A stretch of DNA of 19,950 nt from a virus (Duplodnaviria > Heunggongvirae > Uroviricota > Caudoviricetes). The stretch lies in the IMG/VR virus record IMGVR_UViG_2778261164_000003, one strand, 5' to 3'. Under the pieces are notes generated by a model. It was not told the origin of the DNA and searched no databases. It saw only the letters and a program-made list of their open reading frames with translations. Of the stretch, positions 1-19,950 are shown one piece after another. A program made the position numbers and the translations under genes. The stretch's first letter is position 1; each line of letters starts with the position of its first letter.

Positions 1-136
1 GGAATGGTCTGTGTTGTCGGGAGGATGCGTGATCTGATCCTTCAACTCAGCAAAAGTTCGATTTATTCAACAAAGCCCTGTATTGGTTAAGCAATAAACA
101 GACAGCAATTACTCTCAACTGAACCTGAAAATCCAA

Positions 137-162
137 AGCCTAATAATTTAGGCTTTGGTCTC
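137..162 (-). terminator. Putative intrinsic terminator of the RT operon
   Basis: Perfect hairpin CCAAAGCCTAA-TAAT-TTAGGCTTTGG (11-bp stem). On the minus strand it is followed by AUUUUC; on the plus strand by a T7 run. Confidence 0.5.
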
Positions 163-299
163 AAACTGTTTTTTTAGCTTAAGTTTAAGCATTCAAGCCG
201 ATTTCAGTTCCAGCGAAATCGTCTTCATAATCGATATAAAATACACCGACGACGATGACGTAAGTATTTTGAAACTGACCACGACTCATATTTATCAAA
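163..299 (-). ncRNA. Candidate structured non-coding RNA 3' of the second RT gene (speculative)
   Basis: About 137 nt of non-coding sequence between the RT stop (300) and the terminator hairpin. Contains local hairpins (CGATTTC-9nt-GAAATCG at 199..221; GCTTAA-GT-TTAAGC at about 174..187). DRT-type RT systems are known to need a cognate ncRNA. Confidence 0.2.
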
Positions 300-2318
300 T
301 TAATAGCTTTCTTTCAATTCTTTTTTCTCAATCATTTTCACAATATCTAACTCATCCCACTTGACAAACCAATATGTTTGAAGCAGAGATTGCAAATCAT
401 TCTCAATCTCCAGATGACTTCTGTTCAGCTTTGGCTCATAGCTCTTGAGATATTTTCTATATAAAAAACGCCTTGTCTCTATTGAGACAAATGGACATGA
501 CATGACATCCAAAAATAAATGTGCCTTTTCCGATGATTGCAGCAAATCCATATTAGAACTTAATATTTCCTTTATTTCACCCTCTATTATACACTTCAAT
601 TTTCGGAATGATCTTCTGTTTCTAAAATAGAATAGCAGTGAGATTATAGTAAAGTAGTCCAATTTCTTTTTATGTATAACTCCATGAAAAAAACTGTCAC
701 TTATAAGATAATTATCTCCAAAAAAAGTAGCAGCCAAGATTAAATTAACCTTTTCAATTGAAATGAAATCATCAATAAACAGCCCATTATCATTCTCACC
801 AAAATTAATGTTTTCCGCAGCATTCACTAACGTAGTCATAAAAATACTACTATAGTCACTAGATATTTCATTCAAATAGTTATTAACAACAACCATTGTC
901 TTTGATAATTTATAAGATGATGAAACAGTTGGGTTAACACTGAAAAAGAACAACATAATATCGGTTATTGTGAAAATTAAGTCCTTAATCCTTTTTTTTA
1001 CATCTACATCATCTTCATTTTCTTGAACTCGTAATATATCAATTATTGATATTAATCTTTTGGAAAGAGATGATATTATATATGATGAAACATCAGAATA
1101 AGACACTTGATTTTCAATGCATATAGACTTGACATGATTAATTACATATATCTTTAAATCATGCTTACTTCTTATTTTATTTAAAGTAAAGCCACTATCA
1201 CGTTTTTCATACAGTTTAATTTCTAAATTGCGAATTAATTCATTAACTTTGACAATCAAACTTGTCTTGCTAGTGCAAAATGGCCTAGAATACTTCTTAA
1301 GCTTGTTTACATTTAATTGTAGATTATATTCATTTAACTTCACATTAATTATTTTTGTAATAACTTCGGCACTTGACTCACCATTACAAAAAACAATAAA
1401 ATCATCTACATATCTCAATATAACATAATCTTTATTATTAACCCATCCATGTTCACTAAGAAGGCATGACTCAATATTGCAATCAATTCGCTGAAATATT
1501 AATTCTGCAAAAACCCTGCTAAACTCTGAACCAATAGGTATTCCATTTGTTTCATTATTATTGCTACGTTGCATCAGTGTATCTAATTCTTGTCCAAATT
1601 GATTGCTGTGTTTAACATGTTTTTTGATATATGATTTATTTTTTAATGCCCAAGAAACCGAATGCGTATATATGCTATCAAAACAATGTGATACATCTAA
1701 CATCCACATCACCGAGAATCTTTTCTCAAGCTCAATAAACATCTTACTTTGAAATAGTTTATATATCCTGTTGAAACCGCCATAACTAAAATAAGAGGAT
1801 GAATATTTCCTCATTAACTCATCCTTTGTTGTTTCGATATCTTCCCCTTTATATTTTTCCAAAGCATTATTTTCATATAAAAAGAAAGAGTTAGCGACCT
1901 TACGTGGGTAGCGAATAGAAAAATTACTTTTTAAAGTATTTAATGTGATAACGGATGAGTATGTTTTATAAAATTCCGAATAATTAATTTGAGATCTTGG
2001 GTGAATTAAAGAAAGATGTCTTTGGCTAAAGGCATCTTTTACTATACAATAGCCAAATGGGGAGCTTTGTTTCTTCTTTTCTCGGTGGCGATCTGCGACA
2101 CTAATAGAAGAGTCTAAATTAGGGTTAACTATTTTTTTTAAGAAAGAAGAAACCGGAGTAAAATGTAACAAATCATTACAAACTCTATCATATTCTGTTA
2201 AGTTTATATATAAGCCATCATTTGAAAAAATAATTGGACAATCACCGGGCAGTGTATCACATAGTAAAGCCCTGAGATAATCTTTCTTATCAAGTTTAAT
2301 GTTTTTCTTTATAACCAT
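300..2318 (-). CDS. Reverse transcriptase, 672 aa, with long C-terminal extension (second gene of two-RT operon; UG8-like assignment tentative)
   Basis: RT motif A WMLDVSHCFDSI, motif B GIPIGSEFSRVFAELIF, motif C with catalytic YVDD (VILRYVDDFIVF). ATG at 2318 overlaps the upstream gene's stop by 10 nt (ATATGGTTATAA). Very AT-rich. Confidence 0.85.
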   Translation of the reverse strand: MVIKKNIKLDKKDYLRALLCDTLPGDCPIIFSNDGLYINLTEYDRVCNDLLHFTPVSSFLKKIVNPNLDSSISVADRHREKKKQSSPFGYCIVKDAFSQRHLSLIHPRSQINYSEFYKTYSSVITLNTLKSNFSIRYPRKVANSFFLYENNALEKYKGEDIETTKDELMRKYSSSYFSYGGFNRIYKLFQSKMFIELEKRFSVMWMLDVSHCFDSIYTHSVSWALKNKSYIKKHVKHSNQFGQELDTLMQRSNNNETNGIPIGSEFSRVFAELIFQRIDCNIESCLLSEHGWVNNKDYVILRYVDDFIVFCNGESSAEVITKIINVKLNEYNLQLNVNKLKKYSRPFCTSKTSLIVKVNELIRNLEIKLYEKRDSGFTLNKIRSKHDLKIYVINHVKSICIENQVSYSDVSSYIISSLSKRLISIIDILRVQENEDDVDVKKRIKDLIFTITDIMLFFFSVNPTVSSSYKLSKTMVVVNNYLNEISSDYSSIFMTTLVNAAENINFGENDNGLFIDDFISIEKVNLILAATFFGDNYLISDSFFHGVIHKKKLDYFTIISLLFYFRNRRSFRKLKCIIEGEIKEILSSNMDLLQSSEKAHLFLDVMSCPFVSIETRRFLYRKYLKSYEPKLNRSHLEIENDLQSLLQTYWFVKWDELDIVKMIEKKELKESY

Positions 2319-3586
2319 ATTTTTGTAATCTCAGTATAGCGCTTAAAGTTATACTTTCTATATACTCTATCCACAAAGCCTTTTCTAAAACTATTTCTTA
2401 GCAGTTCTTTTTTTTGCTTCAAATTAAAAGGTTTTTTTGCAACACTATTCAAACGCCCAGTATTAGATTGCACACAATATAGCAAAAAGTCATCTAATTT
2501 TTTTAGGGATATGGAGTCAACATCTAACTTCGCATTACTGTAATAAATACCTGTACTTATCTTGCTTTTTTCTAAAGAACTTAACGATTTTATTTTGCGA
2601 TTTAAATCCCTGTTACTAGTCAAAAAAGAAATCCTGTCTAGCAATAGTTTAAAATCACCATTAATATGATAAGAGTAGAAAGACCTAGCTATTCTTGTTT
2701 TAATTTTCTTCAGGCGAGATTTAGATAAATTAACAACAACCTTTCTGTAACAGCTATTAATCTCACCATCTTTGCTCAAAGGTGTGTCTATTATAGAAAA
2801 CGAGTACCCTAGAAAGTCAAATTCATGAAGCAATTTATCCTGTTTATTTAAACCCTTACTTCTCTTTGGTATGCATGGAGATATTTTTAATTTATTTTTA
2901 TTTAAAGCCAATCCCTTTGGTAATACATCTTGTATAAATTCCATAAAGGACGCTTCACATTCACAACCACTTGAAACGATTACCATATCATCTACAAATC
3001 TTGAATAATAAAATACTTCTGGATGCCTATGAATACTATTATCTAATTGTGCCAAGTACAATTCTGATAACATAGGACTAATTTCTAACCCTCTAGGTAA
3101 TCCTTTCGAAGAGTGAAGCCTTTCACACGATTTAAGATACCATTCTAGCAAATTTTTTGTATGTCTAGACAGTCGTGTTTCGTTATGTAAGAGCTGAAAA
3201 AGCTGCGGTAAATCAATTGATTCAAAGAAAGACTTTATATCCAAACGATATATTTTGAATGGAGTACCTTCTTCCAAATAAATTTTAAGCTCACTAATTA
3301 TTGTATTTCGTTGTTTGGGACGAAGCGATTCAAGGCATTTTAAATTTGCATTGCAATGTCTAAGTATTATTTTTTCCTTCAAACATGAAGCAGTGTAAAC
3401 GCAGCGTCCCTTAATATTTAGTTTCTTTACACTCACACCAGAGCGAAAATTCTCATTAGCAATTAAAACGGCATCACTAATTAATGATTCTAACTCAGCA
3501 ACATTATTTTTTTTAAAATAATAAGCCTTCTCACTTTCACTTAAGTTTCGTTTAAGTGCTGCTGAAGTAAACGGCTGACGGTTCAT
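2309..3586 (-). CDS. Reverse transcriptase, 425 aa (first gene of two-RT operon; UG3-like assignment tentative)
   Basis: RT motif A YRLDIKSFFESID, motif B GLPRGLEISPMLSELYL, motif C FVDD (YYSRFVDDMVIV), later FDFLGYSF. ATG at 3586 preceded by GAGGG Shine-Dalgarno. Confidence 0.85.
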   Translation of the reverse strand: MNRQPFTSAALKRNLSESEKAYYFKKNNVAELESLISDAVLIANENFRSGVSVKKLNIKGRCVYTASCLKEKIILRHCNANLKCLESLRPKQRNTIISELKIYLEEGTPFKIYRLDIKSFFESIDLPQLFQLLHNETRLSRHTKNLLEWYLKSCERLHSSKGLPRGLEISPMLSELYLAQLDNSIHRHPEVFYYSRFVDDMVIVSSGCECEASFMEFIQDVLPKGLALNKNKLKISPCIPKRSKGLNKQDKLLHEFDFLGYSFSIIDTPLSKDGEINSCYRKVVVNLSKSRLKKIKTRIARSFYSYHINGDFKLLLDRISFLTSNRDLNRKIKSLSSLEKSKISTGIYYSNAKLDVDSISLKKLDDFLLYCVQSNTGRLNSVAKKPFNLKQKKELLRNSFRKGFVDRVYRKYNFKRYTEITKIWL

Positions 3587-3930
3587 AATACCCTCATTAA
3601 ACTATCCTCTGTACTTTTTATAGCTCTTTCCATCACTTCCCGCAATCGTATCTCCACAACAGCGACCGCTTTATATAGCAATTTTCATAACTTCGATTAC
3701 AGCTCAAAACATGCGGTAACCGTGCCATAGTTATACCATTCAACGCCCTTACGCGGGCAGCCCCGCACGCCTGCCCGCTTCGCTTAACAGACTGGTTTTC
3801 ATGCATGCCATAAATCGTCTCAGATACCACCACACAAAGGTTTTCGCCTCAAAAAGGGTGCATAAGACTCATGCATTTTCATGCGCCATAGACATGCACT
3901 CATACGCTCTCAGGCCAGCCAGGGAAAAGG

Positions 3931-3960
3931 TGTTAAAAATCCCGGTACTCGACCGGGATT
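3931..3960 (-). terminator. Intrinsic terminator ending the satellite late operon
   Basis: Hairpin AATCCCGGT-ACTCG-ACCGGGATT. On the minus strand it is followed by UUUUUAACA, directly after the Ogr/Delta stop at 3981. Confidence 0.55.
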
Positions 3961-3980
3961 ACGTGGGCGTTTTTTTCTAA

Positions 3981-4253
3981 TCAGACAGGAATCTGCTGAC
4001 GGCTTGACAGTTTTGACGCGGAGCCATAGCGATTGAGCGTTTGCTGTTGTTTTACCGGGGGTTGTGATTTGTCTGGTTCCTGTTCATTGCGCCGGGGTTT
4101 CATGATTATCTTATCCACACTCTCCAGTGCCGTAAATGTGCAGGAACATTCCAGATTCTGGCACTGATACCACGAGCGTTTAACTGACGGAGCTTCATAG
4201 GCTGCTGTTCTGGCGTGTGCAACTGTACCGCATTCCGGACATTTAAGTGCCAT
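3981..4253 (-). CDS. Ogr/Delta-family zinc-finger late-gene transcriptional activator
   Basis: MALKCPECGTVAHARTAAYEAPSVKRSWYQCQNLECSCTFTALESV matches the P2 Ogr C-x2-C...C-x4-C zinc-finger pattern (CPLCQHAAHART...HQCQNVNCSATF). Track start 4262 is GTG; ATG at 4253 has an AGGAG Shine-Dalgarno. Confidence 0.85.
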   Translation of the reverse strand: MALKCPECGTVAHARTAAYEAPSVKRSWYQCQNLECSCTFTALESVDKIIMKPRRNEQEPDKSQPPVKQQQTLNRYGSASKLSSRQQIPV

Positions 4254-4258
4254 TAATA

Positions 4259-4810
4259 TCACTCCTGTATATCGTTAATGTCATTCAGGCGTTGCTGAAA
4301 ACGCAGATGTTGTGCCGGGGTGTAAGAACCCTGGCAATCACGAATCATCCCGGGGTCAGGCATCAAACCGGATTCATCCAGGATCTCACGATAATCCCCA
4401 GCAATTTCAGGCGGTGTTATTGCCAGCTGGCGAACCAGAGCACTGCGTAATATACGGGACGCAACGTCAACCCCTCCGCGCCCCTTCAGGAACGGAGCCA
4501 GTGCAGATGTCAGGGCTGCCCCATTCGCCTGCATAAAATTGCTGAGAGCGGCTTCTGTGCAGGCCTCCATCAGTAAATGCTGCGAGTAAATGCATTCGCG
4601 CGCAGCACAGTTAATTTGCCATTTCAGCACATCCAGACGTTCCCGCAGTAATTCGAGCTGTCGGGCATAATCTGCTGGTTTTTCTGTGGCAGCGAGGAGA
4701 GATGTTATCTGTTGTTCAACGGCTTTTCGGCTCTCATTATGTCCGGCCCACAGAATGCGGGCATTCCGAAAACTGGTAAGTGCCTGGTCAGGCGTGCCTC
4801 GGGCCGTCAT
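4259..4810 (-). CDS. psu: Psu-like protein (polarity suppression / capsid decoration), 183 aa
   Basis: Blocks LDVLKWQINCAAREC, NFMQANGAALTSALAPFL and FTPAQ resemble P4 Psu as recalled from memory. ATGA start/stop overlap with the upstream gene. Confidence 0.6.
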   Translation of the reverse strand: MTARGTPDQALTSFRNARILWAGHNESRKAVEQQITSLLAATEKPADYARQLELLRERLDVLKWQINCAARECIYSQHLLMEACTEAALSNFMQANGAALTSALAPFLKGRGGVDVASRILRSALVRQLAITPPEIAGDYREILDESGLMPDPGMIRDCQGSYTPAQHLRFQQRLNDINDIQE

Positions 4811-5550
4811 ACTGCTTTCTCCTTCTCAGCAAGTTCCTGACGAACCTTAATTTTATGCATAGCTGCCGGAGAGAGTTGATTACTGAAATCCAGACGCGCC
4901 GCATAATCCGGGGCAACTCCCGCCAGTTTAAACACCGGGTCCTGCTCAGGCATCGCATCGTTAGCCAGAGCCGGTCTGGTGATATGTTTATGAATAAAGT
5001 CTTTCAGCACTGTGTCCGGGTCATTAACTGAATTCACCACACCCACAACGGCACTGGCTTCCCGGCCCATTGTGGATTTAAGCAGGCTCAGCGTCTGAAT
5101 AAGCGCTTTTCCATGCGACTGCATAAAATCCTCCCAGATTTGTTTTGCGCGAATATCCACAAGAATGTTATGCGCGTGGATATACTTTCCGGCTAATTCT
5201 GCAGCTTTCTGCGGCAAAAGTGCATTTTCGCTTTCCTGAGCCGCCAGCAGCTCATCAAAATCCTCAAGCGTTTCTCGTCCCAGCGCAATTTCCGTGCGCA
5301 GTTTTTTCATTTCCTTTGAGACCACGCCCTGACTTTCACGAAACAGCGTGCGCCACTCCTCATTCAGTGTGTTCGTCGTGGCTTCCATTTCAGCGCGACG
5401 CTGGCGGATTGTCGCAATATTATCCGCTGCCGCTTTCTGCTGACGACGTGCTTCAAGCCATGCGTTTCTGGCTGTGTTCATGGTTTCCAGTGCCCGCTGC
5501 GTTACAGCCGGAAAAGTGGAAAGGTTGTTATTTACTGCGGTATTGTTCAT
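4807..5550 (-). CDS. Sid-like external capsid scaffold protein (Psu paralogue), 247 aa
   Basis: Psu-like blocks (AWLEARRQQ, IWEDFMQSHGKALIQTLSLL) in a 247-aa protein, close to P4 Sid length. Position upstream of psu. AGGAGA Shine-Dalgarno before ATG at 5550. Confidence 0.45.
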   Translation of the reverse strand: MNNTAVNNNLSTFPAVTQRALETMNTARNAWLEARRQQKAAADNIATIRQRRAEMEATTNTLNEEWRTLFRESQGVVSKEMKKLRTEIALGRETLEDFDELLAAQESENALLPQKAAELAGKYIHAHNILVDIRAKQIWEDFMQSHGKALIQTLSLLKSTMGREASAVVGVVNSVNDPDTVLKDFIHKHITRPALANDAMPEQDPVFKLAGVAPDYAARLDFSNQLSPAAMHKIKVRQELAEKEKAV

Positions 5551-5584
5551 GACTTCTCCTGTCGGGTTGGTTCGTTACGTCAAT

Positions 5585-5640
5585 TGTGTCGTGGCTGACA
5601 CAAGCACACTATCGGTGTTCAGTGTGTGGTGGCTGGCACA
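5585..5640 (-). promoter_or_regulatory. Two TGT-N12-ACA dyads (5585..5602 and 5623..5640): candidate Ogr/Delta-activated late promoter
   Basis: TGTgtcgtggctgacACA and TGTgtggtggctggcACA lie 38 bp apart, 35-90 bp upstream of the Sid-like start. P2/P4 late promoters carry a TGT-N12-ACA activator site. Confidence 0.45.
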
Positions 5641-5916: not shown

Positions 5917-5950
5917 TGTTACCCTTAATAAATAAGACTCACGCAAAGCC

Positions 5951-8623
5951 TTAACCCGGCACCTCGCTGTTGAAGACATAGAGCCTGCGGGGATTCATCT
6001 CTGGCGGGCGAATGGTTGTCTGGTGTTTGCCATCAGTGGAGGGCAGCAGGTATCCACGATCTGCGCACAGACGCGCCACCTTGCGCGGGTCAAATCCCCT
6101 GCAGATTTCTTTCCAGCCGGACGGCATGACATAGAACGTAGTGACAGCTTCCGTGCCCTGCGCGGTACTGCCTTTCTCCACCCTGCGCCAGCCCACCATA
6201 TTGCCGGGGCGGTTGCGCTCGTCATACCAGTCTGCAAAGCGGCTGTACTGATTCGCGGTGAAGAAACTGCGAACCTGCTCCAGTGCGGCGATATCTTCCT
6301 GATTGGCGGTGTGCCCGCGATCTTTCAGCCATGCGTTCAGGCAGACGCGGGTTGCCCGCAGTGCTTCACCCTCAGGCCAGCCGGTGATACCCAGACGGGT
6401 TGCCAGTTCACCTGCCATCGCCACCAGAGCAAAGCGGTTCACAGCCCGGCCCACCTGATTGCCTGCATCTTTCGGAGTCAGGGCGGCAGCATATTCCTTC
6501 ATCAGCGATTTTGCCTGTGCCGTTAGTCCGTTAAGATCAGCGGTCAGTGCTTTCAGCCACTCCCGGAACGGCGAACCGTAGTAGCAGGACGTGGCCCATT
6601 CAAGATGCTCTGCCAGAGCCTTGCCGCTGTCGAAGCCGTGCAGCTCCTCAAAAACGCCAAACTTCCCGGAATCGCTGGGGATCTGGATCATCCTGACTTC
6701 CATCCCGGCAAAAGTACGCTCACCGGCCTTTGCCGCATGTTCGGTCAGAGACAACTCGCCAGTTGAAAAGAACAACAGGCGCCACTGCTTACGGGTACGC
6801 AGCTCACCGTCCGTACCGGCACGGCCCTTGCCCTGACCGTTTGCCAGCATGTAGGCGATATTGCCTGCCTCGCGTCCGTCAACTTCCCGGATCTCATCAA
6901 GCATCATGGCGGCATCGTTGCGGCGGCTGGCGCATCCCTCCAGCGCGTTGCCGGTGGCCCGCCATGTCTGCCAGTAGTCAGGCCCGCCGCAGACGGAGGT
7001 TGCCGCTTTCATGGTGGTGGTCTTACCGTCTGTCGATTCCCCTTTGAGGTGGTAGCCGCCGCCGTCCATACCAACCAGCCGTAACAGTGGTGCAGCAAAG
7101 GCCAGGCTGACAGCAAATGCCACGCGGGAGTTGCCGGTACAGTAGCGGGATACATGCTCCCGCCATTCCTCTGTTGTGCCCGACACGCGGAAATCACGCC
7201 CCTGCACGGAAGTGGTCTGGAGAATGACACCCTCTGCACCTTCACCGCTGACCTCATCCTGCAGGACGTAAACCTGACCATGCCAGCCAGTACGACTGAC
7301 GCAGGTCACGCGGCGTTCCGGTTTACACAGTGAGATATATTCCATCAGGCGTGCGCGTGCCTCACCGGTGGTGCTGATATAAGACAGCCCGTTAACCAGC
7401 AGTACCCGGCGCAGTTCCTCACCACTGCCGCTCAGCATTTCCATCGGCATCGCCCAGCGGCGACACTCACCCCACGTATCTTCCCATTCCAGCAGTCGTC
7501 CGAAGTTACCGCCATCGGCATCGCAGGTGATTGCCGTCACGCGCAGCGGGCTGCATATTTTGACGTTCTGGATCTCCGTCTCACCGTTGCGCTGTACCTG
7601 CTTTTCATACCAGAGATATTCCTGGGTAAGACGGAACCCGTGCGGCAGTTGCGTGCGGCCTTCCCCGCACAGTACCAGACCGTTGCGAAAGGCTTCACGG
7701 GCACGGGTAATACCGTGCTCCCGATGAAAGTCATTCCAGTCAGCCTTAATCTCTCCTGGTGGCAGCGTCATCCAGCCGCCAACAGCTTTTGCCGCCCGTT
7801 CAGCAAAGGCTCTGCCGGGATTCTCACCTCCGTCCTGAAAATCGTTATCACCGGCGATGATAATTTTTACCTCAGGCCAGCGTGCCCGCAGCGACTGCGC
7901 CACATTGGGCAGGTTGCCCGCAGATATGGCAGCCACTACGCATCCGGCAGTGAGCTGACTTACCGTCAGCGCCGTAGCGTAACCTTCGGTAATCACCACC
8001 TGTACCGGTGGTTCAGACGGTAACGGGCTGAGCGACACAAACGCGCCTTTCATCGTGCTGCCGGGCAGTATGCTTTTTTCACCCGTCGGGGCGATAAGCT
8101 GTGCACCAGTCACGGCTCCGGTGTTGGTCGTGAGTGGTAACAGCAGGGAACCGGCAGGAAAATCCTTACCGCTGATATGCTGCACGCTTCCGGTCAGAGA
8201 GGCCGGGTATCCGGCGAACCCTTTTCCTGTCAGATAGGCGCTTTCTCCCGTGTGGCTCTCTTTCATCAGCGCCGCCACGGTAAGACCCATGTCGCGTTTA
8301 GGGGCTTTTTGTCTGGCAGGCTTAACAGGCAGTTCCTGCACATCCGGCACATTAAGCACCTGCGCCACCTCCTGCGCAGCCTTTCTGATGCTGTAACCGG
8401 TTACGAGCTTAACCAGATCCAGACCGTCACCATTGCCACACTGGCTGCAGATCCACGTCCCGCGCCCGTCAAGGTCATCAAGGCGAAAACGATCCTTGCC
8501 CCCACATTTCGGGCAGGGACCGTGCCTGCCGTTTTCAGGTACATCAATACGCAGCATCTGGAGAATAACGGGCCATTTCCCCCGTGCAGCGGCTGAAATC
8601 TGCGTAACCGTCTGTATTGTCAT
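5951..8623 (-). CDS. P4 alpha-type bifunctional primase-helicase, 890 aa
   Basis: N-terminal zinc-binding CPKCGGKDRF...CSQCGNGDG, Toprim IIIAGDNDF, P-loop GESTDGKTT. GGGGGA Shine-Dalgarno before the ATG. Confidence 0.85.
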   Translation of the reverse strand: MTIQTVTQISAAARGKWPVILQMLRIDVPENGRHGPCPKCGGKDRFRLDDLDGRGTWICSQCGNGDGLDLVKLVTGYSIRKAAQEVAQVLNVPDVQELPVKPARQKAPKRDMGLTVAALMKESHTGESAYLTGKGFAGYPASLTGSVQHISGKDFPAGSLLLPLTTNTGAVTGAQLIAPTGEKSILPGSTMKGAFVSLSPLPSEPPVQVVITEGYATALTVSQLTAGCVVAAISAGNLPNVAQSLRARWPEVKIIIAGDNDFQDGGENPGRAFAERAAKAVGGWMTLPPGEIKADWNDFHREHGITRAREAFRNGLVLCGEGRTQLPHGFRLTQEYLWYEKQVQRNGETEIQNVKICSPLRVTAITCDADGGNFGRLLEWEDTWGECRRWAMPMEMLSGSGEELRRVLLVNGLSYISTTGEARARLMEYISLCKPERRVTCVSRTGWHGQVYVLQDEVSGEGAEGVILQTTSVQGRDFRVSGTTEEWREHVSRYCTGNSRVAFAVSLAFAAPLLRLVGMDGGGYHLKGESTDGKTTTMKAATSVCGGPDYWQTWRATGNALEGCASRRNDAAMMLDEIREVDGREAGNIAYMLANGQGKGRAGTDGELRTRKQWRLLFFSTGELSLTEHAAKAGERTFAGMEVRMIQIPSDSGKFGVFEELHGFDSGKALAEHLEWATSCYYGSPFREWLKALTADLNGLTAQAKSLMKEYAAALTPKDAGNQVGRAVNRFALVAMAGELATRLGITGWPEGEALRATRVCLNAWLKDRGHTANQEDIAALEQVRSFFTANQYSRFADWYDERNRPGNMVGWRRVEKGSTAQGTEAVTTFYVMPSGWKEICRGFDPRKVARLCADRGYLLPSTDGKHQTTIRPPEMNPRRLYVFNSEVPG

Positions 8624-10181: not shown

Positions 10182-10472
10182 TTAGGGAGTAGGTGATAAT
10201 CTATTCCCTTTATTAATTGCTCTTGCCTTATTTCTCATCCCCTCAAACTGTTGACCTGAGTTTTCTTCAAACCCATCTCGCCACTTATAATAATCAGCAG
10301 CGCGCCATCGTGACATCCGACCTATTTTTATAGGTTTTGGAAAGCGATTCAGAGAAATCAATCGATAAATCCATTTATCACTTAATAAACAATCGGAAGT
10401 AATAAACTTCATATCGATCAGAGAATCCATTGAAGGTCGTTGCAAAGTAGTATTATCATGTTTAGATAACAT
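10182..10472 (-). CDS. AlpA-family phage regulatory protein (HTH, excisionase-like), 96 aa
   Basis: YRLISLNRFPKPIKIGRMSRWRAADYYKW fits the AlpA signature (FPKPIKIG-R...W). GGAGAA Shine-Dalgarno before the ATG. Confidence 0.55.
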   Translation of the reverse strand: MLSKHDNTTLQRPSMDSLIDMKFITSDCLLSDKWIYRLISLNRFPKPIKIGRMSRWRAADYYKWRDGFEENSGQQFEGMRNKARAINKGNRLSPTP

Positions 10473-10597: not shown

Positions 10598-11422
10598 TTA
10601 GTTAAACTTAATGTTTTTCATGCAACTACGTAGCAAACTAACAACAGTATCATAGCTCAAAGGCGGTTCTCCGGTCTTAGGCCAGAACTCACTGGCATGT
10701 TGAAAAAGATAATCAGCTATCGCTGCTGGACTCTCTCTTCTTAGCCTCATATCACGATGATAGAGCGAAATAATAGCCATGAGTATTTCAGCTCGAGGAA
10801 CAGCATGTTTTTGTTTTTGCGCCTCAGATTGTGATTTATATTTATTGGCGTTTTTTATCCGCTTTTGTTCGCATAAGACTATATCAATGAATTTTTGAAT
10901 CTGTACCTTTGTAATCCACAAAACCTCAAAAAGATAATAATTTTCTTTTTCATCATAATTTACATAAAGAATTACCTTACAATTTATATTAGGCGTACCC
11001 GCCAGTAGAAAATGAATAGGCCAGGAATCCGGTTGCCCCTCATGCTTAACTAACAGATCTTTATATTCATAATCAACAGCCCATAAACCGGATATGAAGC
11101 ATCGAATAAAACCATTTTTATCAATTAAATTATCTTCATCAGGGATTCTTATAGAACTTAAGTCTGACAACATAATATTGCCATTTCTATCTCGTGGTAA
11201 ATATTTCAGATTAGATAAGAACTCATCTATTTGACCATCAATCTTCAAACCACATGAAACATCATACTCATCATCATGGAATTCCATGCATAGCTCTACA
11301 TCTCGTTCTCTGGCAAACCAGAGTATATCCTTTTCACTACAACCAATTTTTTCTGAAGCTTCATCCAACTGGTAGTAATCTCTGAGCAGAGAATCAGTAT
11401 TATTAATTTTTAAAATATTCAT
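10598..11422 (-). CDS. Hypothetical protein, 274 aa, AT-rich cargo gene coupled to the integrase
   Basis: Its ATG overlaps the integrase stop (ATGA). Composition is strongly AT-rich relative to neighbours. No catalytic motif recognised. Confidence 0.6.
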   Translation of the reverse strand: MNILKINNTDSLLRDYYQLDEASEKIGCSEKDILWFARERDVELCMEFHDDEYDVSCGLKIDGQIDEFLSNLKYLPRDRNGNIMLSDLSSIRIPDEDNLIDKNGFIRCFISGLWAVDYEYKDLLVKHEGQPDSWPIHFLLAGTPNINCKVILYVNYDEKENYYLFEVLWITKVQIQKFIDIVLCEQKRIKNANKYKSQSEAQKQKHAVPRAEILMAIISLYHRDMRLRRESPAAIADYLFQHASEFWPKTGEPPLSYDTVVSLLRSCMKNIKFN

Positions 11423-12609
11423 TTATGAGTACCAATTTGCTCAGATAAATAATTAGCATACCATTGCATCATTTCTCTTCTCCCTTCGAGATATTGGGCA
11501 TGGTTATAAATTCCACGAATAGAGTTTTTGTCCGAATGAGCAAGCTGGGTTTCAATCCAAGCGCTGTTAAATCCTTTCTCATGTAGGATTGTACTCATCG
11601 TATGCCTGAAACCATGCCCCGTAACACGCCCTGCATATCCAATACGTTTAAACACCTGATTAATGCTTGCTTCACTCATAAATTTGCTGGGATCGTTGCG
11701 TCCAGGGAACATCAGCGGGTAGTTCCCAGTTAGTTCTTTCAAACTTTTGAGATGGGATAATGCTTGTTTTGACAACGGGACAATATGGCTCCTACGCATT
11801 TTCATACGTTCTTTTGGGATCTCCCACACCGCATTATCAAAATCCACCTCTCGCCACTCACCTGCTCGTAGTTCTCCAGTTCGTAGACCTGTCAGGATAA
11901 GTAAATGCGCCCCCAACAATACAATTGGACTTCCTGAATAAGAATTAAGGGCATTAAAGAACTCCGGTAGTTCGTTGGCTTTGAGGAATGGATAGTGGAC
12001 TGCTTCATGTCCTTGCATCGCACTGGCAAGATCCGGTGCCGGATTGTAGATTGCCCTACCCGTTACGATGGCATAGCGAAAAACTTCACCGCATCGCTGA
12101 CGGACTTTCTTCGCTTTCTCCATAGCGCCTCGAGCTTCTATCAACCTCAGAACTTCAAGCAGTTCAAGGGGCTGAATATCAGCTATAGGTCTGTGCCCAA
12201 TATGCGGGAAAATGTCTTTCTCGAATGCCTCAATGATGTCGGAAGCATAGCCCTCAGACCATTTGGGTGATTTCATTTTGTGCCACTCTAACGCCACTTC
12301 TCTGAATGGGTTAAGTGTCTCACTCGCTGCATTTAAAGCCTGCTTTTTGGCTTTTTTGACTTCGCCGGGATCTTCACCTGCTGCGAGTAGTTTCTTCGCG
12401 TCTTCTCGTTTTTGTCTGGCATCAGCAAGTGTGACTGTTGGATAAACACCAAAGGACAATCGTTTCTCTTTACCAGCAAAACGGTATTTCATACGCCAGT
12501 AACGCGAGCCATTAGGTTCGACCTGAAGGTATAGGCCACCTCCATCAAACAGCTTGTAGCTCTTCTCTTTTCCTTTCGCAGCTTCAACCTTGCGGGCATT
12601 CAGCATCAT
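11419..12609 (-). CDS. int: P4-type tyrosine integrase
   Basis: N-terminal KLFDGGGLYLQV...YWRMKYRF arm-binding region and C-terminal catalytic HGFRHT...RGIYNHAQY. Track start 12678 is TTG; tandem ATG ATG at 12609 with AGGAAA upstream. Confidence 0.9.
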   Translation of the reverse strand: MMLNARKVEAAKGKEKSYKLFDGGGLYLQVEPNGSRYWRMKYRFAGKEKRLSFGVYPTVTLADARQKREDAKKLLAAGEDPGEVKKAKKQALNAASETLNPFREVALEWHKMKSPKWSEGYASDIIEAFEKDIFPHIGHRPIADIQPLELLEVLRLIEARGAMEKAKKVRQRCGEVFRYAIVTGRAIYNPAPDLASAMQGHEAVHYPFLKANELPEFFNALNSYSGSPIVLLGAHLLILTGLRTGELRAGEWREVDFDNAVWEIPKERMKMRRSHIVPLSKQALSHLKSLKELTGNYPLMFPGRNDPSKFMSEASINQVFKRIGYAGRVTGHGFRHTMSTILHEKGFNSAWIETQLAHSDKNSIRGIYNHAQYLEGRREMMQWYANYLSEQIGTHK

Positions 12610-12685
12610 TGGGGGCACATTTCCTAGACCGAACAGAACATGCCCCTGATTGTGCCCCCAACCGCGTGTTGATTTCAAGAGACAA

Positions 12686-12758: not shown

Positions 12759-12773
12759 GGGAAAACTAGGTGA

Positions 12774-12818
12774 TGGTGCCGATAATAGGAGTCGAACCTA
12801 CGACCTTCGCATTACGAA
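12774..12818 (-). other. Attachment-site core: 3' 45 nt of a tRNA-Thr(CGU) gene, not an intact tRNA
   Basis: Minus strand reads TTCGTAATGCGAAGGTCGTAGGTTCGACTCCTATTATCGGCACCA: anticodon loop with CGT, T-arm GGTTCGACTCC, acceptor 3' half and CCA. It matches my memory of E. coli thrW. The 5' half of the tRNA is absent from the flanking sequence. Confidence 0.7.
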
Positions 12819-13234
12819 TTATAAGAATCCGCTTCTAATTCAAAGCATTACCCCATCAACACTGCGCTCACACGTCCCACCACATCAAAACATGTAAAGC
12901 CTTGCAAGTCATTGCGAGGCCTTATGTGTCTCAGTTTTGTCCCACCTTGTATTACGACTTGCATAGCCAATGAAGATAAATGTGACGACAAACGGCGCAG
13001 CAGTCTTCTTTTCCTTCATACTTTCCCCACCCAGCATGCATACCTTCTACCATAACTGTAGTTAATGTCTGTTATGAGCGAAAAGCGGTCCTTAAATACA
13101 ATTTTCATTGATAACGCCGTCTTGTTGCTATTGAAGACATTATCAACATCATTGTGTTTTTACTTATATTTGAAGGAGGGCTATTCAAGGGATTGCCCCC
13201 TTTTAACAAAAATTCCACCAGAACAGTAGGTCTG

Positions 13235-14929
13235 CTAATTGGTCTCTATAATTGAGCTTAATTCGTTAATGAGCAGGTGAGGGCTCATTTGAGTTAAGTC
13301 ATACTGCCTCCCCAATTTCTCTTGCATTCCTCCTCGTATTTTCTTTAATAAATATTTGCCTTTAATGTTATTAACTGATGTCGGAACTTGGTTTCCAAAT
13401 AATGTTAGGTGTCGAGGGCATGCTTCCAGTCTCCCCTTATATAAATTATATTTAATCACCTCTCTTTTGGATTGAAAATCAGACTGGATGACAACATGAT
13501 TTTGTGCGGCTATATCAGTAATCCATGTTTGTATATCTTGCACAGAAGAGCCTGTAACATGAGATAAATGCTCTATTCTGGTAAAATAACTCTCAATATC
13601 ACTACCTTCAGTAATGAATGGAATGGCGCCACCTCTTTGAATTTCTGCTTTTACTATATCTACTTCTTCATCAGTCATAAAATCGCGGTCACGATGAATT
13701 ATAACCTTGCAATTAGGGGACATTTCCTTAAGAAGGTCAGCAGATACAATTGCTCCTTGCACATTTGTGCATGTTTTGTAGCTATAGACTGCAGTTCTCT
13801 CCATATCAAAACCATTATATTGTAAAAGGGCCTTGAAATATTTTTTATCTCTATCTTCAGTGAGAAATATATTCTCCACAACCCCTTCAGTTACTCTATC
13901 CAAGTCATTTAAAGCTCCTAAATCTAAGAACATTGATATTTTGTCCAAATCCATGCCTTGATTCTGAACATTACCATCTTTCATCCAAATAAAATTTGCC
14001 TCTCCATACAATGAATCAATTATATGTTTGCTATGAGTGGAAAGTATAACTTGAGTTTCTGATTTGTTATTTTCTGATATTAAACTCAATGAGTCAGTGA
14101 GAATATATTGATTATCAGGGTGAAGATGAGAATCCGGTTCATCTAAGAGTAATAATTTAGGTTTGAAATATACTATATATGCAAATATCTGTAATGTTTG
14201 AAGTAATCCAGTTCCCGCCAACTCGATAGGGTAATTTTTCCCACTTGCATTTTCTTTAAAATTAACGGTTAGATAAGTATCTTTATCCTCTTTGAAATCC
14301 ACTTCGATTTCTATATCTGGAAATACAACTTGCAGCATGCTATTGAGATTTACCAAGTGGTTATCTTTGTTCAGATAGTATATGACATTCCTTAAGTATA
14401 AATTTGCATCACCACTTGCCACTCCTCTTCTAACTATTGCTGGCGATTTTAATTCTTCCTTCTGTGAGATACCAGCCAGACCAGGAACATATATACTAAA
14501 GAGATTTTTTTCATCGGTGATTACTGAACCGAAGCCGGTATAATCACCGGTTCTTTCACATGACATATTTCCATGATTTCGTCCCTTAGATATAATTATA
14601 TTGTATTCTAATTGTCGACCAACAAGATCATCATATCCAAAAAGACTCAACACACTTTGATTGCCAGGCGACCTCGAATTCTTATAAGGTTCGCCGTTCT
14701 TTAAAACAGTGAAGTCTGGGGTGATATTATACATTAAAAGTTCAGTAGAGAATGTTTGTTGACTTTGTTGCCGAGCGGCAATAGCTGCGCATACTGAAAA
14801 ATGTATAGCTTGCAGAATACTGCTCTTACCTGAACTATTTGCCCCTACTAATACATTTATATCACTAAGGGTGATTTCTGCTGTGTCAATTTTTTTGAAT
14901 TTACTAACAGACAAAGACTTAATGAACAT
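13235..14929 (-). CDS. OLD-family ATP-dependent nuclease (ABC-type ATPase plus Toprim), standalone class-1 type like phage P2 Old
   Basis: Walker A LVGANSSGKSS, Walker B/H-loop LLLLDEPDSHLHPDNQ and LSTHS; C-terminal Toprim-like NIFLTEDRD and VIIHRDRDF. Length comparable to P2 Old and GajA. No UvrD-like partner follows. Track start 14947 is TTG; ATG at 14929 has an AAGGAA Shine-Dalgarno. Confidence 0.7.
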   Translation of the reverse strand: MFIKSLSVSKFKKIDTAEITLSDINVLVGANSSGKSSILQAIHFSVCAAIAARQQSQQTFSTELLMYNITPDFTVLKNGEPYKNSRSPGNQSVLSLFGYDDLVGRQLEYNIIISKGRNHGNMSCERTGDYTGFGSVITDEKNLFSIYVPGLAGISQKEELKSPAIVRRGVASGDANLYLRNVIYYLNKDNHLVNLNSMLQVVFPDIEIEVDFKEDKDTYLTVNFKENASGKNYPIELAGTGLLQTLQIFAYIVYFKPKLLLLDEPDSHLHPDNQYILTDSLSLISENNKSETQVILSTHSKHIIDSLYGEANFIWMKDGNVQNQGMDLDKISMFLDLGALNDLDRVTEGVVENIFLTEDRDKKYFKALLQYNGFDMERTAVYSYKTCTNVQGAIVSADLLKEMSPNCKVIIHRDRDFMTDEEVDIVKAEIQRGGAIPFITEGSDIESYFTRIEHLSHVTGSSVQDIQTWITDIAAQNHVVIQSDFQSKREVIKYNLYKGRLEACPRHLTLFGNQVPTSVNNIKGKYLLKKIRGGMQEKLGRQYDLTQMSPHLLINELSSIIETN

Positions 14930-14976
14930 TTTCTTTTCCTTTTTCAATGAAAGGTGTAAAACTTTAACTCATCATT

Positions 14977-15261
14977 TTAGTTGTTAACATTCAAAATCAT
15001 AAACTGATTCTCTATTTTACCAATGAATAGCAGTCCTATCAGAGTAAAAATAGTGTTAGATATTTTTCTTACATCTGAATCTGAGAAATATTCGGATTCT
15101 TTATAGCAATTATTCCATATGTCGAGTTCTCTAAAATCATAAGCTAAATGAGCAATTTTTCCCCAATCTTCATTTACTATATGCTCAGCCATTGTAAAAA
15201 AATCACTCTTAGTCGGAATGTCTATTCTCATTGTTACTTGGCCTATTTTTTCATTGCTCAC
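14977..15261 (-). CDS. Possible small ORF upstream of the OLD nuclease (doubtful)
   Basis: 94 codons from a GTG. No convincing Shine-Dalgarno at the GTG or at either internal ATG. May instead be the 5' UTR of the OLD gene. Confidence 0.2.
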   Translation of the reverse strand: MSNEKIGQVTMRIDIPTKSDFFTMAEHIVNEDWGKIAHLAYDFRELDIWNNCYKESEYFSDSDVRKISNTIFTLIGLLFIGKIENQFMILNVNN

Positions 15262-15730: not shown

Positions 15731-16492
15731 TCACTGACGTGTTCTTGCCTCAACTACTTTCTGGTATATAGCGATAGCTTCATCAACCAAAGCTAATGGA
15801 TAGCAAGAATTTATATTCAATCCGGAGGGGCACTTAATTCTTTCTGCTCCACGTTCACTACGCAATTTTTCACACCATTGCCAAAGTTCCTCAACTGAAT
15901 AGGTATCCAAACCTAACTCCATCAATCGTTGAGGAACACTTCTGAACTGAGACAAATCTCTTAAACTTTCTAACGAGTTAACTTTTAGTTCAACTTGGTT
16001 TACTCTACTTTCTAACTCTTCACGTTTTTCTATTTCCATTACCAATGCTTGAACCGTCTGCTGCAGACTGTTAGCAAAAGCACTCAGTTCTGAACGTTCT
16101 TGTTTAGGTGGCGGAGGATATACACCAAATTCACGAATAGACGGAAGGACCTGATGAAAAAGCCAGCGTTGGAATTTTTTCCCCGCAGCAGTAGTATCCT
16201 GAGCAAGTACTCTATATAGACCTGGTTCAGTAAGAAATACCTCAGAGATAGTTTCACCATCCACGACAAGAGAAACATTCCTAAACTCATCTGGATCTAA
16301 AGTTTTTATTACCGCTCTTATTACAGTGAGCAAGCTTTGAGAAGTCTTTCCATCCAGTTTTCTGTTCTCAGCAGAAAGCGTTCTTAGCACATCTGAAAGT
16401 GAAACAAAAATCTGCCCTTTTTCATTCATGCTACGGATATAATTTTCTCCACACTCTCCTTCGTAGCATAATTGTAACAAATTCTTTTGCAC
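15731..16492 (-). CDS. Bro-N domain protein with C-terminal coiled-coil region (antirepressor-like), 253 aa
   Basis: N-terminal YIRSMNEKGQIFVSLSDVLRTL and FQRWLFHQVLPSIREFGVY match the Bro-N pattern. GTG start at 16492 with AGGAGG 5 nt upstream. Confidence 0.6.
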   Translation of the reverse strand: MQKNLLQLCYEGECGENYIRSMNEKGQIFVSLSDVLRTLSAENRKLDGKTSQSLLTVIRAVIKTLDPDEFRNVSLVVDGETISEVFLTEPGLYRVLAQDTTAAGKKFQRWLFHQVLPSIREFGVYPPPPKQERSELSAFANSLQQTVQALVMEIEKREELESRVNQVELKVNSLESLRDLSQFRSVPQRLMELGLDTYSVEELWQWCEKLRSERGAERIKCPSGLNINSCYPLALVDEAIAIYQKVVEARTRQ

Positions 16493-16770: not shown

Positions 16771-16799
16771 TTGATCTTGAGTTTGGTTTTTAGTATAAG
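16771..16799 (+). promoter_or_regulatory. Sigma70-like promoter for the HTH/peptidase operon
   Basis: TTGATC, 17-bp spacer, TATAAG, about 25 bp upstream of the ATG. Confidence 0.4.
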
Positions 16800-16825
16800 T
16801 GAGCATGGATTGTAGGAGGCGCAAC

Positions 16826-17176
16826 ATGGTAACTAGCTTTGGTAAGACTCTCAGAAAAATGAGAATAGACCGGGGTATGGTGCTCAAAAATATGGCTGAT
16901 CTGTTAGGCGTTAGTTCGGCTTACTTATCCGCCATTGAATTAGGCAAAAGAGCTATACCGGACTCATTAGTAAATACGATTGCAACAACTTTTGAGCTTA
17001 GCGGACAAGACATCATCAATCTCAAGAAACAGGCAGAGATTTCTCAACCGTCCATTAAGGTTGATATGTCGGATGCAAATGAGCAGAACAAAGAACTAAT
17101 GCTTGTTTTTGCTCGTAAATTTAAGGACCTGAGTCCAGAGCAACTCGATAAGCTTAATAAAATGTTAAAGGACTGA
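16826..17176 (+). CDS. XRE-family helix-turn-helix transcriptional regulator, 116 aa
   Basis: LKNMADLLGVSSAYLSAIELGKR HTH motif. AGGAGG 7 nt before ATG 16826 (track start 16799 is GTG). Confidence 0.85.
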   Translation: MVTSFGKTLRKMRIDRGMVLKNMADLLGVSSAYLSAIELGKRAIPDSLVNTIATTFELSGQDIINLKKQAEISQPSIKVDMSDANEQNKELMLVFARKFKDLSPEQLDKLNKMLKD

Positions 17177-17179
17177 ATA

Positions 17180-17713
17180 ATGATTGCGAAACGAGAACTT
17201 GGCCATCGCGTTTCACCTCTCAGCACCAGCATGATTAAATCATACGCTCATCGTCTGAGAGACGTTCTTCAGATATCAAATCACACATATCTGAGACTGG
17301 ATGTATTACTAGAAGGTCTTATGGCCTCAGAAAGCATTGAGCTAGAAATTGTTGAAGATCATGAACTGCCCAAACGCTATGCAGTGACTTATCCAGATAA
17401 GAACAAAATTGTTTTACAGCGATCTGTTTACGATGCAGTGTGCAATGGTGAGAACCATGCGAGATTCACTGTTGCGCATGAACTTGGTCATTTAGTCATG
17501 CATCGCAATCAAAGTATCTATGCACGTAATAAGACTAGTGGAGGGCATAAAATCTATGAAGACAGCGAATGGCAAGCAGATGTTTTTGCAAGCCACTTCT
17601 TAATTGACTCAAGACTAGTTTTGCCCACAATGACTGTTGAAGATATAAGCAAAACATTTGGTGTCAGTCAACAAGCGGCTGAAACCTGGATGAGAAAAAA
17701 TGCAAAAAGATAA
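17180..17713 (+). CDS. ImmA/IrrE-family zinc metallopeptidase, 177 aa
   Basis: HEXXH motif in TVAHELGHLVMH. Start lies 4 nt after the HTH stop, with AAAGGA Shine-Dalgarno. Confidence 0.85.
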   Translation: MIAKRELGHRVSPLSTSMIKSYAHRLRDVLQISNHTYLRLDVLLEGLMASESIELEIVEDHELPKRYAVTYPDKNKIVLQRSVYDAVCNGENHARFTVAHELGHLVMHRNQSIYARNKTSGGHKIYEDSEWQADVFASHFLIDSRLVLPTMTVEDISKTFGVSQQAAETWMRKNAKR

Positions 17714-18307: not shown

Positions 18308-19177
<870 letters not shown>

Positions 19178-19197: not shown

Positions 19198-19239
19198 AAC
19201 CGCAGCACGATCTTCTTCCATACGACGTGCTACGGTTTC
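19198..19239. repeat. Hairpin-containing repeat, copy C; likely bidirectional terminator between convergent genes
   Basis: CCGCAGCACG-16nt-CGTGCTACGG (9 of 10 bp paired) matching the 3' part of copies A and B. Flanked by T-rich tracts on both strands. Sits between the GIY-YIG stop (19177) and the invertase stop (19238). Confidence 0.6.
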
Positions 19240-19792: not shown

Positions 19793-19950
19793 GGTAGATC
19801 TCCCTGACAAAAGCAGGAATGATGCCATTTGCTCGTTATTTCTGCATTTTCATAAACGTTGGTTTGGGAGAATCGGCAAAACGGAATGTGGGCAACGGGG
19901 AAAACCAAATCCCTGATATGTCTTTCTGGACGGTTACTGGTGGCAATGGA

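Follow-up and report, generated by a model that had tools for sequence, protein, structure and literature searches.

The window analysed here, 19,950 nt of a Caudoviricetes virus (IMG/VR record IMGVR_UViG_2778261164_000003), carries two adjacent genes for different reverse transcriptases (RTs) at 300-3586, which raises the question of what system they form and whether this copy of it can still work. Taken together, our analyses indicate that the pair is very probably a canonical DRT3 system (Drt3a/UG3, Drt3b/UG8 and a cis-encoded ncRNA) carried as cargo by a P4-like satellite, and that its ncRNA has been interrupted by an insertion sequence (IS), with the probable loss of defence. The system type, the proteins (identical to RefSeq entries), the mechanism and the residence of DRT3 in P4-like satellites are already published. 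The original description of DRT type 3 is reportedly that of Gao et al. in 2020.

The two reverse transcriptases are Drt3a and Drt3b

300..2318, minus strand: drt3b (UG8, Class 1 RT), 672 aa, intact
2309..3586, minus strand: drt3a (UG3, Class 2 RT), 425 aa, intact

The two genes lie side by side on one strand, drt3a before drt3b, and their ORFs share the 10 nt reported by an earlier, sequence-only reading of this DNA; the same overlap is present in all six related loci with listed gene calls (L051-L056). The palm motifs that this reading described as intact were also recovered, namely YRLDIKSFFES and SRFVDDMVIV in Drt3a (motif A, LDIKSFF; motif C, FVDD) and WMLDVSHCFDS and LRYVDDFIVF in Drt3b. 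The active sites of both proteins, LDIKSFF/FVDD and LDVSHCF/YVDD, are intact, and both are required for DRT3 defence. For motif C of Drt3a, the form FVDD occurs in 6/6 enterobacterial relatives and in 16 of the 42 motif matches in wider loci.

The suggestion that the pair corresponds to DRT type 3 (UG3 plus UG8) is borne out by curated equivalog HMMs, which both proteins match: Drt3a scores 359.6 bits against NCBIfam NF041747 (cut-off 200) over its full length (1-424/1-412), and Drt3b scores 614.7 bits against NF041748 (cut-off 350). The corresponding PADLOC E-values are 1.4e-129 and 8.1e-204, and in the PDB each protein best matches its namesake chain in 9z6y (Drt3a, 3e-55; Drt3b, 3e-113). 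In addition, about 20 complete genomes of E. coli carry PGAP annotations of drt3a and drt3b, at 99.9% identity; compared with the alleles of intact E. coli loci, Drt3a carries the single substitution F181L, while Drt3b is identical to the protein of the intact loci.

Residues were mapped onto the E. coli enzyme EcoDRT3b (PDB 26cz), whose E22, R71, D182, R241, YVDD and Y666 correspond to D26, R100, D208, R268, Y303-D306 and Y672 in the window, all of them invariant in 20 homologues. D208 and Y303-V304-D305-D306 are catalytic; D26, R100 and R268 are the counterparts of the templating and nucleotide-selecting E22, R71 and R241; and the C-terminal Y672 aligns to the priming tyrosine Y666. Position 26 is Asp in the window and Glu in the characterised enzyme, and the product of the window's clade is assumed by analogy with that enzyme; E22D is reported to be a common, partly active variant of Drt3b (PMC13174585).

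A structured ncRNA follows drt3b

The motif ACACAC occurs 116-234 nt past the drt3b stop codon in 37 of 38 evaluable loci. The ncRNA around it was recovered comparatively, from an alignment of 10 enterobacterial loci (A2), an RNAalifold consensus and pair counts. The consensus structure comprises 30 pairs, of which 96% are paired (32-47% in slid controls), with both-side changes at 14 pairs (2-5 in controls), and none of 500 shuffles reached the consensus. A covarying helix of 16 pairs closes the structure, and folding of the native RNA gives z = -6.9. Alignment A2 documents a satellite-borne enterobacterial clade in which the ncRNA is longer than the characterised one, spanning about 245 nt between the outer ends of the helix by comparative estimate versus 161 nt, while the 21-nt template block GCTTACACACCTGATGTTGAG is kept and is invariant in all 10 loci.

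The ncRNA is uninterrupted in all 22 E. coli genomes that have it. An Rfam search with the intact native ncRNA returned a chance-level match alone (E = 0.79), and so the DRT3 ncRNA has no curated Rfam family; the covariance model of the EcoDRT3 study covers 'subgroup 9' systems only (PMC13174585).

An insertion sequence interrupts the ncRNA in the window

1..77, minus strand: end (77 nt) of an IS5-family (IS903-group) element, with the terminal inverted repeat GGCTTTGTTGAATAAATCG from 77
78..282, minus strand: truncated DRT3 ncRNA (5' 205 nt), matching native locus L001 exactly up to the IS

The earlier two-gene description was right about both RTs but overlooked the obligatory ncRNA and its disruption; the IS5-family end at 1-77, which interrupts the ncRNA, had also gone unnoticed. 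Positions 1-77 have 100% matches in 1,938 E. coli genomes, at loci of IS5-family transposases. The transposase starts at about 45 and reads leftward beyond the window edge, and at locus L057 the transposase CDS starts 33 nt inside the same IS end. We take the element to be IS903 on the basis of its inverted repeat. All of the approximately 20 native DRT3 loci part from the window exactly at 77/78: the window equals the native locus for 222 nt past the drt3b stop codon and then passes into the IS terminal repeat, 12 nt upstream of the ncRNA template.

What the window keeps of the ncRNA is one side of the closing helix, its 5' strand (282..271, GTGGTCAGTTTC), together with the extension of that helix (268..265) and the stem-loops inside. 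About 40 nt are missing from the 3' end: the template-adjacent stem-loop has lost its 3' side, and the ACACAC template, CUGAUGUUGAG and the closing-helix 3' strand are absent as well. The template block was not found in the whole window at up to three mismatches, whereas it is exact in 10/10 related loci, and the ACACAC-bearing structured ncRNA is incomplete in the window and complete in the native allele L001, which is identical in other respects. The intact allele is carried, for example, by PEC1003 (NZ_CP160643.1), where about 3487400-3491450 corresponds to L001 5750-9800. The window copy probably does not work despite two intact ORFs, because the IS removes the template and the closing-helix 3' strand from the ncRNA. 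Our data show the protein families, the conserved residues, the ncRNA and its fold, the place of the IS and the hotspot setting, and from these we infer the DRT3 products at this locus and the loss of function.

It seems unlikely that this copy still functions, either with the IS lying outside the functional RNA or with the RNA parts reassembling after separate transcription or read-through. Both ORFs are intact, with one amino-acid change in total, and the 205-nt remnant of the RNA retains the internal hairpins and folds well (z = -5.6). Moreover, since IS903 transposition generates target duplications, the distal 40 nt probably survive past the IS; the window stops within the IS, and if those nucleotides are intact on its far side, read-through or trans-pairing could in principle rebuild the fold. 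However, the two blocks that the IS splits are invariant and contiguous in 10/10 related loci, the closing strand that it takes away belongs to the 16-pair covarying helix, and the ncRNA is unbroken in 22/22 E. coli genomes. In published DRT3 the template loop is essential, template mutations abolishing both defence and poly(dTdG) (PMC13174585), and the RNA is the structural scaffold of a 6:6:6 complex (PMC13314766). A clone of 1..3960, as once proposed for phage assays, would carry the truncated ncRNA, and an absent phenotype would therefore be uninformative on DRT3.

It is very improbable that the 77/78 junction arose during assembly, by a contig mis-join at a repeat, and that the ncRNA of the real genome is intact. 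IS copies often break or confuse assemblies, and the junction was found in none of the complete E. coli genomes of the collection; yet the sequence switches precisely where the terminal inverted repeat begins, beside unique sequence, which is the signature of real transposition, while a mis-join would be expected within shared repeat sequence instead. For a real insertion, a simple event would be expected to leave a 9-bp target duplication and TTAGTGGTGCTTACACACCTGATGTTGAGAAACTGACCAC beyond the IS; otherwise an IS-mediated deletion would be indicated.

Relationship to known systems

Among the closest known systems is EcoDRT3, the system of E. coli ECOR12 (Wang et al. 2026, PMC13174585). Like EcoDRT3, the window locus is a three-part system in which the ncRNA starts about 15 nt past drt3b, the ACACAC template of the native allele is followed by the closing-helix 3' strand, and counterparts of E22, R71, R241 and Y666 are all present. 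The ncRNA architecture agrees with that of EcoDRT3 apart from its length; in contrast, the Drt3b protein is more distant (270 bits), and the window ncRNA is cut by the IS.

The DRT3 of Deng et al. 2026 (PDB 9z6y/9z6z) consists of a 426-aa Drt3a, a 650-aa Drt3b and an ncRNA in a 6:6:6 assembly. It provides the best structural-database match, over the full length, for both window proteins and shares their gene order, catalytic motifs and C-terminal ...KxxY end. However, the sequences have clearly diverged, the window's Drt3b has Asp rather than Glu at position 26, its Drt3a has FVDD rather than YVDD, and the ncRNA of its clade is longer.

Among other RT systems, Drt3a resembles DRT9 and DRT10 (Class 2 UG RTs with ncRNA template loops), which make repeat cDNA off a short template loop, and Drt3b resembles AbiK and DRT4 (Class 1), which prime on tyrosine without a nucleic-acid template. 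The secondary HMM matches fall on exactly these two groups. Unlike either group, DRT3 combines both classes in one operon, which leads to complementary strands.

Retron and group II intron RTs were considered and rejected: the scores were 49.4 bits for retron St85 (cut-off 235) and 71.8 and 43.3 bits for group II intron maturase (cut-off 300), and there was no associated RNA of either kind, no Rfam family reaching its gathering score anywhere in the window, including group II intron and retron RNAs. The chance of a divergent or new two-RT system, or of a pair of retron, group II intron or DGR RTs, is practically negligible, since the secondary matches of Drt3a (group II intron maturase, 71.8 bits; retron St85, 49.4 bits) and of Drt3b (Drt4, 112 bits against a cut-off of 450) are of the weak kind seen for all RTs and lie far below those cut-offs, whereas the Drt3a and Drt3b equivalog models are passed by wide margins and the associated RNA is of the DRT3 type, with an ACACAC template. 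The profile-HMM comparison that had been proposed as a check thus gave a clear result, and, with proteins identical or near-identical to RefSeq-annotated Drt3a and Drt3b, the option of an equally likely novel two-RT system is excluded. Judged by its sequence, the locus is a DRT3 member with one disrupted component and not a different system.

Published mechanism and probable consequences of the insertion

The mechanism had been called poorly understood, which is out of date, as it was worked out in two studies of 2026 (PMC13174585; Deng et al. 2026, summarised in PMC13314766). [quoted passage not shown] As published for intact DRT3, an ncRNA with a long closing helix displays a 5'-ACACAC-3' loop, which Drt3a copies repeatedly into poly(dTdG); Drt3b primes on its C-terminal tyrosine and makes poly(dCdA) with active-site residues replacing a nucleic-acid template. 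The two products anneal to dsDNA that is normally degraded by RecBCD, and phage inhibition of RecBCD (lambda Gam) leads to its build-up and to abortive infection.

In the window copy, the IS903-group element parts the template and the closing-helix 3' strand from the remaining RNA. Drt3a would then have no usable template, neither poly(dTdG) nor dsDNA would be made, and defence would be lost, although synthesis of poly(dCdA) by Drt3b may persist. A less likely reading of the IS-split allele, which we regard as rather doubtful on present evidence, is that of a DRT3 uncoupled in nature, with Drt3b still making poly(dCdA) but no complementary strand; such an allele might be a silent knock-out that protein-based censuses score as complete, or might be under selection because it eases DRT3 toxicity (e.g., in a RecBCD-compromised background) or has a single-strand-based phenotype of its own.

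Protein-based tools (PADLOC, DefenseFinder and PGAP) ignore the RNA component of DRT3, and the window copy would be scored 'complete' by them despite its severed template, which calls for caution in defence-system censuses. The same IS-broken copy also calls for care with the claimed rarity of defence pseudogenes in P4 hotspots (bioRxiv 10.64898/2026.02.27.708500).

DRT3 as cargo of a P4-like satellite

3587..3760, minus strand: drt3a cargo-side leader and core/cargo boundary (about 3735-3760), where flank homology breaks
3981..4262, minus strand: Ogr/Delta (Pfam Ogr_Delta, 58.2 bits)
4259..4810, minus strand: Psu (Pfam Psu, 152.7 bits)
4807..5550, minus strand: Sid-like protein, a Psu paralogue (PHROG 6165 Psu-like, 311 bits)
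5951..8623, minus strand: P4 alpha-like primase-helicase (Pfam Zn-ribbon, Toprim, DUF927)
11419..12678, minus strand: satellite tyrosine integrase (Pfam Arm-DNA-bind_3, Phage_int_M, Phage_integrase)
12773..12819, minus strand: att copy, 3' part of a tRNA-like sequence (…GGTTCGACTCCTATTATCGGCACCA), with a 25-nt core at 12773..12797

The P4-like core genes are all present: psu, sid-like, ogr/delta, the alpha-type primase-helicase and the integrase. The sequence-only reading had placed AT-rich RT genes directly after the late operon, in the variable-cargo position of such a satellite, and this description holds. The cargo (78-3734) has a G + C content of 30.7%, compared with 55.3% in the satellite core (3735-9705), and it is preceded by sid-psu-delta in that order, with the late genes at 3981..5550 also supported by the RefSeq annotation of L001. 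The delta-side core flank is common to 847 E. coli genomes, in which homology ends at 436-461 of the query 3300-4300 unless DRT3 is present, and L058 and L059 hold other cargo at the same satellite slot.

The satellite is about 12.9 kb long, with a 25-nt tRNA-like att repeat at its boundaries. The 25-nt core recurs (24/25) at 5807..5830 of L001, about 130 nt past the intact ncRNA; for the window, the second att copy lies past the IS, beyond the window. ARAGORN found no complete tRNA; the att sequence presumably derives from thrW. The 19-nt P2/P4 cohesive end was not found at up to three mismatches, and the delta-drt3a spacer and the sid-psu-delta region showed no DNA similarity to any phage record, even in distant mode. 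The promoter and terminator scan gave fewer promoter-like sites than shuffles, with none convincing upstream of drt3a or the ncRNA and no convincing sigma-70 match in 3587-3760.

This arrangement resembles the defence hotspot of P4-like satellites (Rousset et al. 2022, PMC9122126), in which the cargo between the psu/delta end and att/int varies. It differs in that sid-psu-delta is co-directional with the alpha operon and int is at the far end, and therefore DRT3 adjoins att, not int, when integrated. A GC-rich conserved stretch was also observed at the core/cargo boundary, at about 3750-3790.

Identity and setting of the reverse transcriptase pair

The sequence-only reading described two overlapping reverse transcriptase (RT) genes with palm motifs in both products, adjoining satellite late genes. 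This was borne out by the ORF calls, which place the pair and the late genes on the same strand and give the two RT genes an overlap of 10 nt. The relevant features are as follows.

300..2318, minus strand: drt3b, ORF of 672 aa
2309..3586, minus strand: drt3a, ORF of 425 aa
3981..4262, minus strand: Ogr/Delta zinc-finger gene, a satellite late gene directly upstream of the RT pair
4259..4810, minus strand: Psu, satellite late gene
4807..5550, minus strand: Sid-like Psu paralogue, satellite late gene
5951..8623, minus strand: alpha-type primase-helicase, beyond the Sid-like gene
11419..12678: integrase, satellite gene
12773..12797: 25-nt tRNA-like repeat beside int

The motifs are LDIKSFF and FVDD in Drt3a, and LDVSHCF and YVDD in Drt3b; FVDD was found in 6/6 members of the enterobacterial clade and in 16 of 42 motif matches elsewhere. 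The proposed AT-richness also holds, with a G + C content of 30.7% for bases 78-3734 versus 55.3% for the satellite core (3735-9705).

The two RTs are Drt3a and Drt3b without ambiguity. Both match the NCBI curated equivalog models end to end (Drt3a, 359.6 bits, cut-off 200; Drt3b, 614.7 bits, cut-off 350), PADLOC assigned them to the same families (1.4e-129 and 8.1e-204, respectively), and among solved structures they best match the Drt3a and Drt3b chains of PDB 9z6y/9z6z. The next-best families, UG17/DRT10, group II and retron RTs for Drt3a and Drt4, Drt6, AbiP2 and AbiK for Drt3b, all scored far below their own cut-offs. In addition, a cluster of 213 E. coli sequences matches Drt3b at 100% identity, and the 4-kb region recurs at 99.9% identity in approximately 20 complete E. 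coli genomes, in which the two genes already bear the PGAP names drt3a and drt3b. Thus, the suggested DRT type 3 (UG3 plus UG8) assignment is upheld, and the alternative of a novel two-RT system, considered equally possible from the sequence, is excluded by these scores and by the nearly identical RefSeq-annotated loci.

The host element is a P4-like satellite, with genes for an integrase, an excisionase-like protein, Icd-like, DUF5375, alpha, sid, psu and delta. The late-gene order is sid-psu-delta, unlike the sid-delta-psu of P4. A second copy of the 25-nt repeat lies approximately 130 nt past the ncRNA in the intact allele, and the two copies delimit about 12.9 kb; we take the repeat to be the 3' terminus of thrW, a site consistent with the neighbouring pao/yagU. 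No cos site was found with the 19-nt P2/P4 cohesive end as the query (up to 3 mismatches). The delta-side flank is common to 847 of 5,426 E. coli genomes, and in all of these except the DRT3 carriers the homology stops at approximately 3735-3760, which confirms the cargo position proposed for the RT pair. Other cargo is found there. One near-identical satellite core has a lone 398-aa hypothetical gene at this position, and between delta and int of a classical P4-type element are genes for which the annotation reads 'ABC-three component system'. Psu and Ogr/Delta also lie directly upstream of drt3a in relatives from Serratia and Enterobacter hormaechei. The slot corresponds to the psu-int hotspot of Rousset et al. 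2022 (PMC9122126).

A 274-aa ORF (10598..11422, minus strand) had no match in Pfam, PADLOC, NCBIfam or PHROGs and may represent a second accessory or cargo gene of the satellite. It lies in an AT-rich patch (approximately 33% G + C), with the excisionase-like ORF (10182..10472) on one side and the integrase on the other, and it overlaps the integrase stop by 4 nt.

Functional residues

The mechanism of DRT3 had been called poorly understood, a view now out of date because two 2026 studies solved it (Wang et al., PMC13174585; Deng et al., via PMC13314766). As far as these sources describe the system, it comprises Drt3a, Drt3b and an ncRNA encoded just 3' of drt3b (PMC13174585; PMC13314766), assembled as a 6:6:6 particle with the RNA as scaffold (PMC13314766). 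Drt3a, a Class 2 UG RT, synthesizes poly(dTdG) from a conserved 5'-ACACAC-3' loop of the ncRNA; Drt3b, a Class 1 RT, uses its C-terminal tyrosine Y666 as primer, and its E22, R71 and R241 impose alternating dC/dA without a nucleic-acid template, the two products annealing into dsDNA. Defence is lost when either active site, Y666 or the template loop is mutated, recBCD mutants are unable to maintain DRT3, and the RecBCD inhibitor lambda Gam triggers its abortive infection (all PMC13174585; PMC13314766).

Residues were mapped on 26cz, the SUMO-EcoDRT3b entry, in which the chain residue equals the EcoDRT3b residue + 108.

Correspondence of EcoDRT3b and window Drt3b residues
E22: D26
R71: R100
D182: D208
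R241: R268
Y276-D279: Y303-D306
Y666: Y672

None of these window residues varies across 20 aligned homologues (identity down to approximately 41%). The window protein has Asp where EcoDRT3b has Glu at E22, a replacement that is frequent among homologues and partly active according to Wang et al. (PMC13174585). Drt3b is identical to the intact alleles, and Drt3a differs from them by one substitution, F181L (window 3044), which is the sole amino-acid difference across both RTs from L001 (NZ_CP160643.1, an E. coli locus with the uninterrupted allele); Phe is also present in the 9z6y homologue.

Conserved ncRNA downstream of drt3b

DRT3 loci were gathered from reference genomes (47) together with eight closer ones. 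ACACAC lies 116-234 nt past the drt3b stop in 37 of the 38 loci with at least 260 nt downstream, against a chance expectation of approximately 0.1 per locus. The exception, L030 (Alteromonas aestuariivivens), lacks it within 450 nt, and its RNA might lie elsewhere or have a variant template. Two blocks recur across ten enterobacterial loci: GCTTACACACCTGATGTTGAG, which is 21 nt long and invariant, and the conserved 5' block GTGGTCAGTTTCAAAATACTTACGT. RNAalifold pairs the 5' block with sequence just 3' of the template in a 12+4-bp closing helix that encloses further helices. On this consensus 96% of cells are paired, versus 32-47% in controls with the partners slid 1-3 columns out of register; both-side changes occur at 14/30 pairs versus 2-5 in the slid controls; and the covariation score was reached by 0/500 shuffles. 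For the native 283-nt region, the folding z-score is -6.9. The RNA starts approximately 17 nt past the drt3b stop and runs from the 5' helix strand through internal stem-loops and the template to the 3' helix strand. This architecture is that of the 161-nt EcoDRT3 ncRNA, as given in the supplement of Wang et al. (PMC13174585), although the RNA of the window's clade is longer (approximately 245 nt from helix start to helix end). Rfam returned no family for the DRT3 ncRNA, either in the window or in the intact native form.

In L050 (E. coli MFDS1022581), tandem ATGCTTCCC units (approximately 3245-3300) start right after the 3' strand of the closing helix and are overlapped by a small hypothetical protein called by PGAP.

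Interruption of the ncRNA by an insertion sequence

The two-RT operon is real and was rightly interpreted, yet it is ordinary: RefSeq already annotates this defence system, its mechanism has been published and the hotspot was known. The sole new detail is that the ncRNA of this copy is severed by an insertion sequence (IS). ACACAC was not found in the 299 nt 3' of the drt3b stop, nor the template block anywhere in the window (up to 3 mismatches). All genomic matches to the window end at position 78, and bases 1-77 are the terminus of an IS5-family element known from approximately 1,900 E. coli genomes, presumably of the IS903 group judging from its inverted repeat. Its transposase starts approximately 33 nt inside the IS end and reads out of the window.

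The uninterrupted L001 allele (window = L001 - 5923) continues TTAGTGGTGCTT-ACACAC-CTGATGTTGAG-AAACTGACCAC, placing the template 12 nt past the insertion point. The 5' 205 nt of the ncRNA (282..78, minus strand) are still joined to the operon and keep the inner hairpins, but this fragment is unable to close. The 3' side of the template-adjacent stem-loop, the template, the invariant CUGAUGUUGAG and the 3' strand of the closing helix are either lost or displaced by at least the IS length (approximately 1 kb). The ncRNA is uninterrupted in 22/22 complete E. coli genomes carrying it. As both ORFs are otherwise intact, with two DNA differences from the intact allele in 3,923 bp, the insertion looks recent.

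Because the RNA is the scaffold of the complex and its template loop is indispensable, this copy would probably make neither poly(dTdG) nor dsDNA and thus would not defend. Drt3b does not need the ncRNA in vitro and may still synthesize poly(dCdA). The lesion escapes protein-based annotation, and, since the ncRNA is severed, the proposed clone of 1..3960 is unsuitable as a functional test.

Defence-like genes beyond the satellite

Just outside the att copy, 13235..15261 (minus strand) encodes a 570-aa OLD/AriA/NsnB-like ABC ATPase (PADLOC NsnB 2.6e-31, AriA 4.9e-29; no equivalog passed), followed by an unannotated 94-aa ORF; this looks like a candidate uncharacterised ATPase-based defence gene pair. 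Further along are a Bro-N protein (15731..16492, minus strand) and, at 16799..17713 (plus strand), an HTH regulator followed by a CapP-like metallopeptidase-domain protein (PADLOC capP 5e-15), a pair that resembles the CapH/CapP-type regulators that control defence operons. A PD-T4-3 defence protein (18353..19177, plus strand; PADLOC 2.7e-140; Pfam LEM-3-like GIY-YIG domain) adjoins a serine resolvase (19238..19828, minus strand). Taking these genes together, the 12.8-19.9 kb region is a second defence island adjoining the satellite.
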